A stretch of 64,000 nucleotides of DNA from assembly GCF_058153355.1 (NCBI RefSeq), contig NZ_CM177019.1; one strand, written 5' to 3'. Below are positions 24,879-25,142 of the stretch, piece by piece. Position numbers and translations under genes: made by a program. How positions within the stretch are numbered: the first letter of the stretch is position 1; each line of letters begins with the position of its first letter. The notes below the pieces were generated by a model. The model had not been told where the DNA came from. It saw only the letters and a list, made by a program, of their open reading frames with translations, and searched no databases.

Positions 24879-25142
24879 AAATCGCGGAAGGGATGAAAAA
24901 ACAGCGCCTGACGGCGCTGTGTCTGGCATGCCTGCAATCTGGGAAACCGGGGTAGAAAAAAACTTGCAGGCCATAACAGTATCTACACAGGGCATTGAAC
25001 TCGTAGGCATGATAAGACGCGACAGCGTCGCATCAGGCATTGCGCACCGTATCGCCAGATGCAGCTTGAACGTTTTATCCGTCCTACAAACCGGTTGCAA
25101 GCCGCAAAATTGAGCGCGATCGGTCCGCTAGCCTGATTCACC

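Follow-up and report, generated by a model that had tools for sequence, protein, structure and literature searches.

A split promoter at the ends of two IS621 copies matches the published IS621 junction promoter

Two copies of IS621 and their termini

The window examined here, a stretch of 64,000 nt from contig NZ_CM177019.1 (RefSeq assembly GCF_058153355.1), carries two closely related mobile elements on opposite strands. Their positions and the gene carried by the first are as follows:

23706..24984, plus strand: IS621 copy 1, 1279 bp with the CT core counted once (from the RefSeq annotation, the match to published IS621 and the empty site)
48990..50267, minus strand: IS621 copy 2, 1278 bp (from the alignment to copy 1, with 34 differences, and the empty site)
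23704..23705, plus strand: CT core on the flank side of the left junction of copy 1
23898..24878, plus strand: IS621 recombinase coding sequence, 326 aa (NF033542, PF01548 and PF02371; 4 aa from the published protein)

The recombinase scores 253 bits against the NCBIfam model NF033542, "IS110 family RNA-guided transposase" (cut-off 140), and contains the Pfam domains PF01548 (DEDD_Tnp_IS110; 2.2e-24) and PF02371 (7.5e-26). The sequences in Supplementary Table 1 of Durrant et al. 2024 (PMC11208160) served as our reference for IS621. Measured against them, mismatches in the two copies amount to 3-4 of 191 positions in the left end, 6-7 of 105 in the right end and 2-4 of 326 in the protein, the values for copy 1 being 3, 7 and 4, respectively. 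In the "IS621 sequences" sheet of that table the row labels "Donor" and "Target" appear to be swapped, as the "Target" row holds the right-end/left-end junction and the "Donor" row the REP target. Of 5,426 complete E. coli genomes, 2,244 contain matches to the whole 1279 bp of copy 1, at approximately 13,000 places in total, and these places carry the RefSeq label "IS110-like element IS621 family transposase". Judged by these matches, both elements are copies of the E. coli insertion sequence IS621, a member of the IS110 family whose DEDD recombinase takes its guidance from a bridge RNA encoded in the left end. A search of positions 23500-25200 against Rfam 15 returned no bridge RNA family, only matches to the REP-derived naRNA4; REP-type matches of this kind (naRNA4/REP) flank copy 1.

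We rebuilt the empty insertion sites by joining 100 nt of left flank, ending in CT, to 100 nt of right flank. With a single CT, both rebuilt sites align with E. coli 2013C-4282 along all 200 of 200 nt; each has a single unrelated mismatch, and the joint itself is free of insertions and deletions. Therefore, the termini of both copies are fixed to the base. Both copies are inserted in REP sequence, with the CT core on each side and no target duplication beyond the core.

Promoter boxes, bridge RNA and the joined ends

The two boxes of the promoter lie at opposite ends of the element in each copy:

24964..24969, plus strand: -35 hexamer TTGCAG in the right end of copy 1, 15 nt from the terminus (shared by copy 2 and the published IS621 right end)
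24970..24984, plus strand: right-end part of the promoter spacer, containing the donor left arm ACAGTAT (24976-24982) and the core CT (24983-24984)
23708..23713, plus strand: -10 hexamer TATTAT in the left end of copy 1, overlapping the donor right arm TGTAT (23706-23710)
49005..49010, minus strand: -35 hexamer TTGCAG of copy 2 (the plus strand reads CTGCAA)
50260..50265, minus strand: -10 hexamer TATTAT of copy 2
24956..24962, plus strand: A-tract of 7 A (copy 2 has 6), around -43 to -37 of the junction promoter, also present in the published right end

The 15 nt that separate TTGCAG from the terminus of copy 1 at 24984 read GCCATAACAGTATCT, and the left end of the same copy opens with TG (23706-23707) directly before TATTAT. 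Joining the right end to the left end yields TTGCAG-N17-TATTAT in both copies, oriented toward the recombinase gene. Among the 34 positions at which the two copies differ, none falls in either hexamer and one lies in the promoter spacer (A to G in copy 2). The -10 slot is equally constant elsewhere, reading TATTAT in 67/67 left-end starts among the IS621 loci that we fetched. With the ends fixed by the empty sites, the original prediction had located TTGCAG, its 15 nt to the terminus and the TG before TATTAT correctly to the base; the joined promoter it proposed is seen in both copies, and the same arrangement it had reported for copy 2 is present there at 49010..49005 (TTGCAG) and 50265..50260 (TATTAT).

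The A-tract at 24956-24962 is possibly UP-element-like, a suggestion that draws on the known UP-element consensus. An extended -10 was considered and rejected, as the TG at 23706-23707 abuts TATTAT and does not lie one base upstream of it. A decayed IS621 in NZ_CP082080.1, a frameshifted pseudogene beside IS1397, has TTGCTG in its -35 slot, with TTG kept.

The same prediction had called this promoter near-consensus, and that description has to be given up. TTGCAG agrees with TTGACA at 3/6 positions (TTG is kept) and TATTAT with TATAAT at 5/6, for a total of 8/12, which is below the threshold of our consensus promoter scan (at least 4/6 per hexamer and 9/12 overall). Scored with a rough sigma-70 matrix of approximate frequencies, the junction reaches 10.0 bits and is the best site in the joined sequence. 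By these measures the predicted junction promoter is moderate, not near-consensus, and its strength cannot be read from the sequence because the -35 hexamer matches at only 3/6 positions.

Shortly downstream of the -10 hexamer lies the bridge RNA gene:

23720..23896, plus strand: bridge RNA gene of copy 1, 177-178 nt (located by the published bridge RNA, with 3 differences)
50077..50253, minus strand: bridge RNA gene of copy 2 (from the published sequence match and the fold)

The published bridge RNA begins with AGUGCAGAG, which corresponds to window position 23720, 7 nt after the last base of TATTAT. The RNA folds into three stem-loops in both copies, with z = -4.5 for copy 1 and -4.0 for copy 2. 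Its guides ACAGTATC (23843-23850) and CAAG (23882-23885) match the donor ACAGTAT-CT-TG. When copies 1 and 2 are compared over 23772-23796 and 24940-24956, neither left target guide fits its own flank at position 4 (flanks ATCTGGCCT and ATCAGGCCT).

Each of these parts has a counterpart in the literature. Durrant et al. (2024, Nature 630:984; PMC11208160) reported that elements of the IS110 family, including IS621, excise as a circular form, and their small RNA-seq of a plasmid carrying the joined right and left ends detected an ncRNA of approximately 177 nt that starts at a predicted sigma-70 promoter. A promoter with its -35 from the right end and its -10 from the left end, termed Pjunc, has been described for IS110/IS1111 elements, with IS621 named among them (PMC12288879). 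In a 2026 preprint the IS621 leader "from Pjunc to the start codon" drives sfGFP reporters, and expression downstream is reported to be dampened by the 5' stem-loop of this bridge RNA (bioRxiv 10.64898/2026.03.19.712850). As cited in PMC12288879, the idea of a junction promoter dates to IS492 (1999), IS911, IS21 and IS30.

Compared with the published IS621 Pjunc, the promoter found here has the same -35, spacer, -10, CT core, donor and bridge RNA 5' end, with no promoter differences, and the element around it is the same, with 2-7 differences per part. The Pjunc promoters of IS492, ISEc11 and ISPpu10 share the split, the joining in a minicircle and the expression of guide RNA and transposase (PMC12288879; bioRxiv 10.64898/2026.03.19.712850), although their hexamers and targets differ. 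In the DDE elements of the IS911/IS3, IS21 and IS30 families the logic is likewise the same, as cited in PMC12288879: a strong promoter exists only where the ends of a circle or tandem dimer abut and is lost on integration. However, these elements have an unrelated transposase (that of IS621 is of the DEDD/serine type), their ends are inverted repeats a few bases apart and they have no guide RNA. The split promoter is therefore the published IS621 junction promoter, and its recognition here is a rediscovery of a feature already known.

The model that best accommodates these features is the published one. Excision would join the right end of IS621 to its left end across the CT core, and this joining would set TTGCAG, with the A-tract upstream, 17 nt upstream of TATTAT as the hybrid sigma-70 promoter Pjunc. 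Transcription from Pjunc would start at the A at 23720, yielding the bridge RNA and, where polymerase reads on, the mRNA of the recombinase as well. On integration into REP the boxes would be parted again and REP sequence would fill the -35 slot, so that expression would fall. We consider this explanation, taken as a whole, highly probable. We observed directly how the parts are arranged, where the elements end, that they are IS621, that the split is conserved and that the integrated -35 slots are poor. Circle formation, promoter activity and the transcription start are taken from the literature, and we infer the size of the on/off contrast in IS621. The claim that the promoter is formed on excision and reads into the leader RNA and recombinase is thus supported by the published model, by the conserved split and by integrated slots that are mostly poor.

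The -35 slot in integrated copies

Two sites near the left junction of copy 1 bear on how far an integrated element might be transcribed:

23685..23690, plus strand: integrated -35 slot of copy 1, CGTAAA, which is REP sequence and a poor match
23705..23733, plus strand: second promoter-like site, TTGTAT-N17-GAAAAT, a candidate weak native promoter (9.8 bits vs. 10.0 for the junction), present in both the integrated and the circular state

The corresponding slot of copy 2 reads TGCGCT. With the same matrix, the slots of the two window copies score -1.2 and -0.7, compared to 3.2 for TTGCAG, and the consensus scan of both integrated copies returned no promoter. We extended the comparison to 32 distinct left flanks, drawn from 63 metagenome contigs with an IS621 left end, from other fetched loci and from the two window copies. 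All but one of them (31/32) are REP-like and end in ...ATCNGNCCT, the exception being a flank from O26 strains described below, and every metagenome left end (63/63) abuts REP-like sequence with the same ending. A -35 slot as good as TTGCAG occurs in only 2 of the 32 left flanks (CTGACG and TTCACC), with CTGACC a close third. The original prediction had judged CGTAAA a poor match; this is confirmed, and the slots of the other copy and of 30/32 flanks likewise fall below TTGCAG. From these flanks it appears that the integrated promoter may be weaker at most sites, not necessarily at all of them, and that the switch may not be absolute everywhere. The candidate site TTGTAT-N17-GAAAAT could supply the basal expression needed for the first excision.

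The alternative that deserves the most attention accepts that Pjunc exists but denies that it is a real switch. Integrated copies would then be adequately transcribed, either from TATTAT with a -35 supplied by REP, from the internal TTGTAT-N17-GAAAAT or by read-through from neighbouring genes, and the circle would give a modest boost at most. Some basal expression is indeed required for a first excision, and the internal site has a similar score in both states; however, the published IS621 RNA starts at the Pjunc position. Natural flanks in which the -35 slot equals TTGCAG number 2-3 of 32, whereas the slots of both window copies are poor and the consensus scan of the integrated copies is empty. 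Related elements provide precedents in both directions: ISPpu9, an IS110 element, has a native promoter and forms no hybrid promoter, but in ISPpu10 the hybrid promoter was measured as strong and the native one as weak (PMC12288879). Conservation of the right-end -35 across the family would also be hard to explain if this box added little. On balance we regard an absence of real switching as unlikely. In the literature surveyed we found no reporter comparison of the integrated and junction contexts for IS621 itself.

Other signals for transcription were noted at the right junctions. At that of copy 2 (48983-49010, minus strand), TTGCAG is followed after 16 nt by CATAAT in the flank. This pair is a possible outward-facing hybrid promoter, whose transcripts would run antisense toward the 3' terminus of the plus-strand open reading frame at 47351-48850. 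In copy 1 the flank reads ACAGGG in this place and offers no comparable -10. Just past the recombinase stop codon, at 24901-24920 and 49054-49073, both copies carry a palindromic GC-rich hairpin, ACAGCGCCGTCAGGCGCTGT, that is followed by a T-run only on the strand antisense to the recombinase. To judge from this orientation, the hairpin resembles a terminator that would stop transcripts running into the element from its right side.

Conservation of the split, the donor site and natural junctions

Conservation in other IS110 elements was examined in 45 diverse circle junctions (part 12 of the donor alignment in Supplementary Data 1 of Durrant et al.), with 45 target sequences (left halves) from the companion file as a control. 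The best-scoring site starts with TTG in 33/45 junctions, and nearly all of these have a spacer of 17 nt. Most of the TTG-type junctions have their -10 beyond the core, in the left end, so that the boxes lie on opposite sides of the joint. The mean best score was 8.1 bits for the 45 junctions and 3.3 for shuffled sequences. TTG occupies the homologous position in 19/45 donors vs. 1/45 targets, and the best -35 scores of donors and targets differ (Mann-Whitney p = 4e-5). The motif conserved in these relatives is TTGAC-like and lies 17 nt from a TAnnnT box.

These data bear on the view that two unrelated hexamers merely happen to be juxtaposed at the joint and form no functional promoter. The match to consensus is only 8/12, and 57 of 127,942 window positions on both strands score at least 10.0 bits (the top 0.045%), but a site of this score that straddles the joint in the correct orientation is expected by chance at only about 1%. 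The same split, moreover, recurs in most of the 33/45 IS110 junctions with a TTG -35, and its conservation in relatives rules out chance. With the published start lying 7 nt after the -10 as well, small RNA-seq and conservation together refute chance juxtaposition for practical purposes, and we assign it a negligible probability.

It is scarcely credible that TTGCAG is conserved as a substrate of the recombinase-bridge RNA complex instead of as a promoter box. In favor of this reading, the hexamer lies only 6 nt from the donor left arm, and recombination keeps the last bases of the right end conserved. It is already contradicted, however, by a 22-bp donor that lacks TTGCAG and still recombines with bridge RNA provided in trans (PMC11208160); in addition, donor recognition spans 14 nt, and what the relatives conserve is a -35-like motif at promoter spacing from a -10-like box. 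The published IS621 donor, with recognition over these 14 nt, is ACAGTATCTTGTAT (Durrant et al. 2024, PMC11208160). The truncation to 22 bp shows that the -35 is dispensable as a recombination substrate; it is no clean test of the promoter box because the bridge RNA gene was deleted too.

The switch by excision, which we favor, would tie production of the bridge RNA and recombinase to excision, and this coupling would limit the activity of resting copies and drive re-insertion of the circle. It is relevant both to the biology of IS110 elements and to the engineering of bridge recombinases, and the value of the present case is that a published regulatory feature was recovered from raw sequence alone. 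Two further readings are put forward tentatively, and we hold them to be rather doubtful; neither was found stated in the literature surveyed. Firstly, ACAGTAT-CT-TGTAT serves both as donor recombination site and as promoter spacer plus -10 box, so that RNA polymerase might have to compete for the circle junction with the complex of recombinase and bridge RNA. Such competition, if true, would amount to a built-in negative feedback in which Pjunc is shut off once enough complex has been made. Secondly, a minority of REP variants might leave integrated copies constitutively "on", in which case copies with a hexamer such as CTGACG exactly 17 nt upstream of TATTAT would be the active donor copies of a genome.

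Finally, we searched for right-end/left-end junctions in natural sequences. A 105-nt junction query found no place with at least 80% coverage in the 5,426 complete E. coli genomes, and the exact junction pattern had 0 matches in metagenome contigs, where the left-end pattern occurs in 63 contigs, all integrated in REP. Species-representative genomes gave 0 junction matches and 0 matches to the IS621 left end, and hence are uninformative on junctions. Since junctions are absent from the E. coli genomes and metagenome contigs, tandem dimers are not fixed in genomes. This absence speaks neither for nor against the model, because transient circles would not be assembled. Partial junction matches of 63% in O26 strains were rejected as junctions, as the left flank there holds no more of the right end than its final 11 nt and lacks the -35.

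The O26 locus has features of its own. In NC_013361.1 (E. coli O26:H11 11368), a full IS621 lies between rsmS and mscK with the left flank ...GCGCTACGCTTAACAGTATCT/TGTATTAT (positions 2490-2520 of the fetched locus L001), an arrangement shared by many O26 genomes. Here the last 11 nt of the right end, comprising the donor left arm and core, replace the usual REP left target ATCAGGCCT; the left junction has an intact donor site and lacks the -35. From this arrangement, the flank may descend from a tandem or circle junction that later suffered a deletion.

A different remnant was found downstream of znuB in NZ_CP076689.1 (positions 1491-1575 of the fetched locus L065) and also in ST131 strains (L066). 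This solo relic comprises approximately the initial 61 nt of an IS621 left end and lies between direct repeats of the REP target that are 11 nt long (TTATCCGACCT). Of the features described above, it retains only the -10, the 5' hairpin and the start site. The relic stops where the bridge RNA gene encodes the left target guide, which is a mimic of the target. To judge from this end point, it may have arisen by an aberrant excision that used the segment encoding the left target guide as a pseudo left junction.
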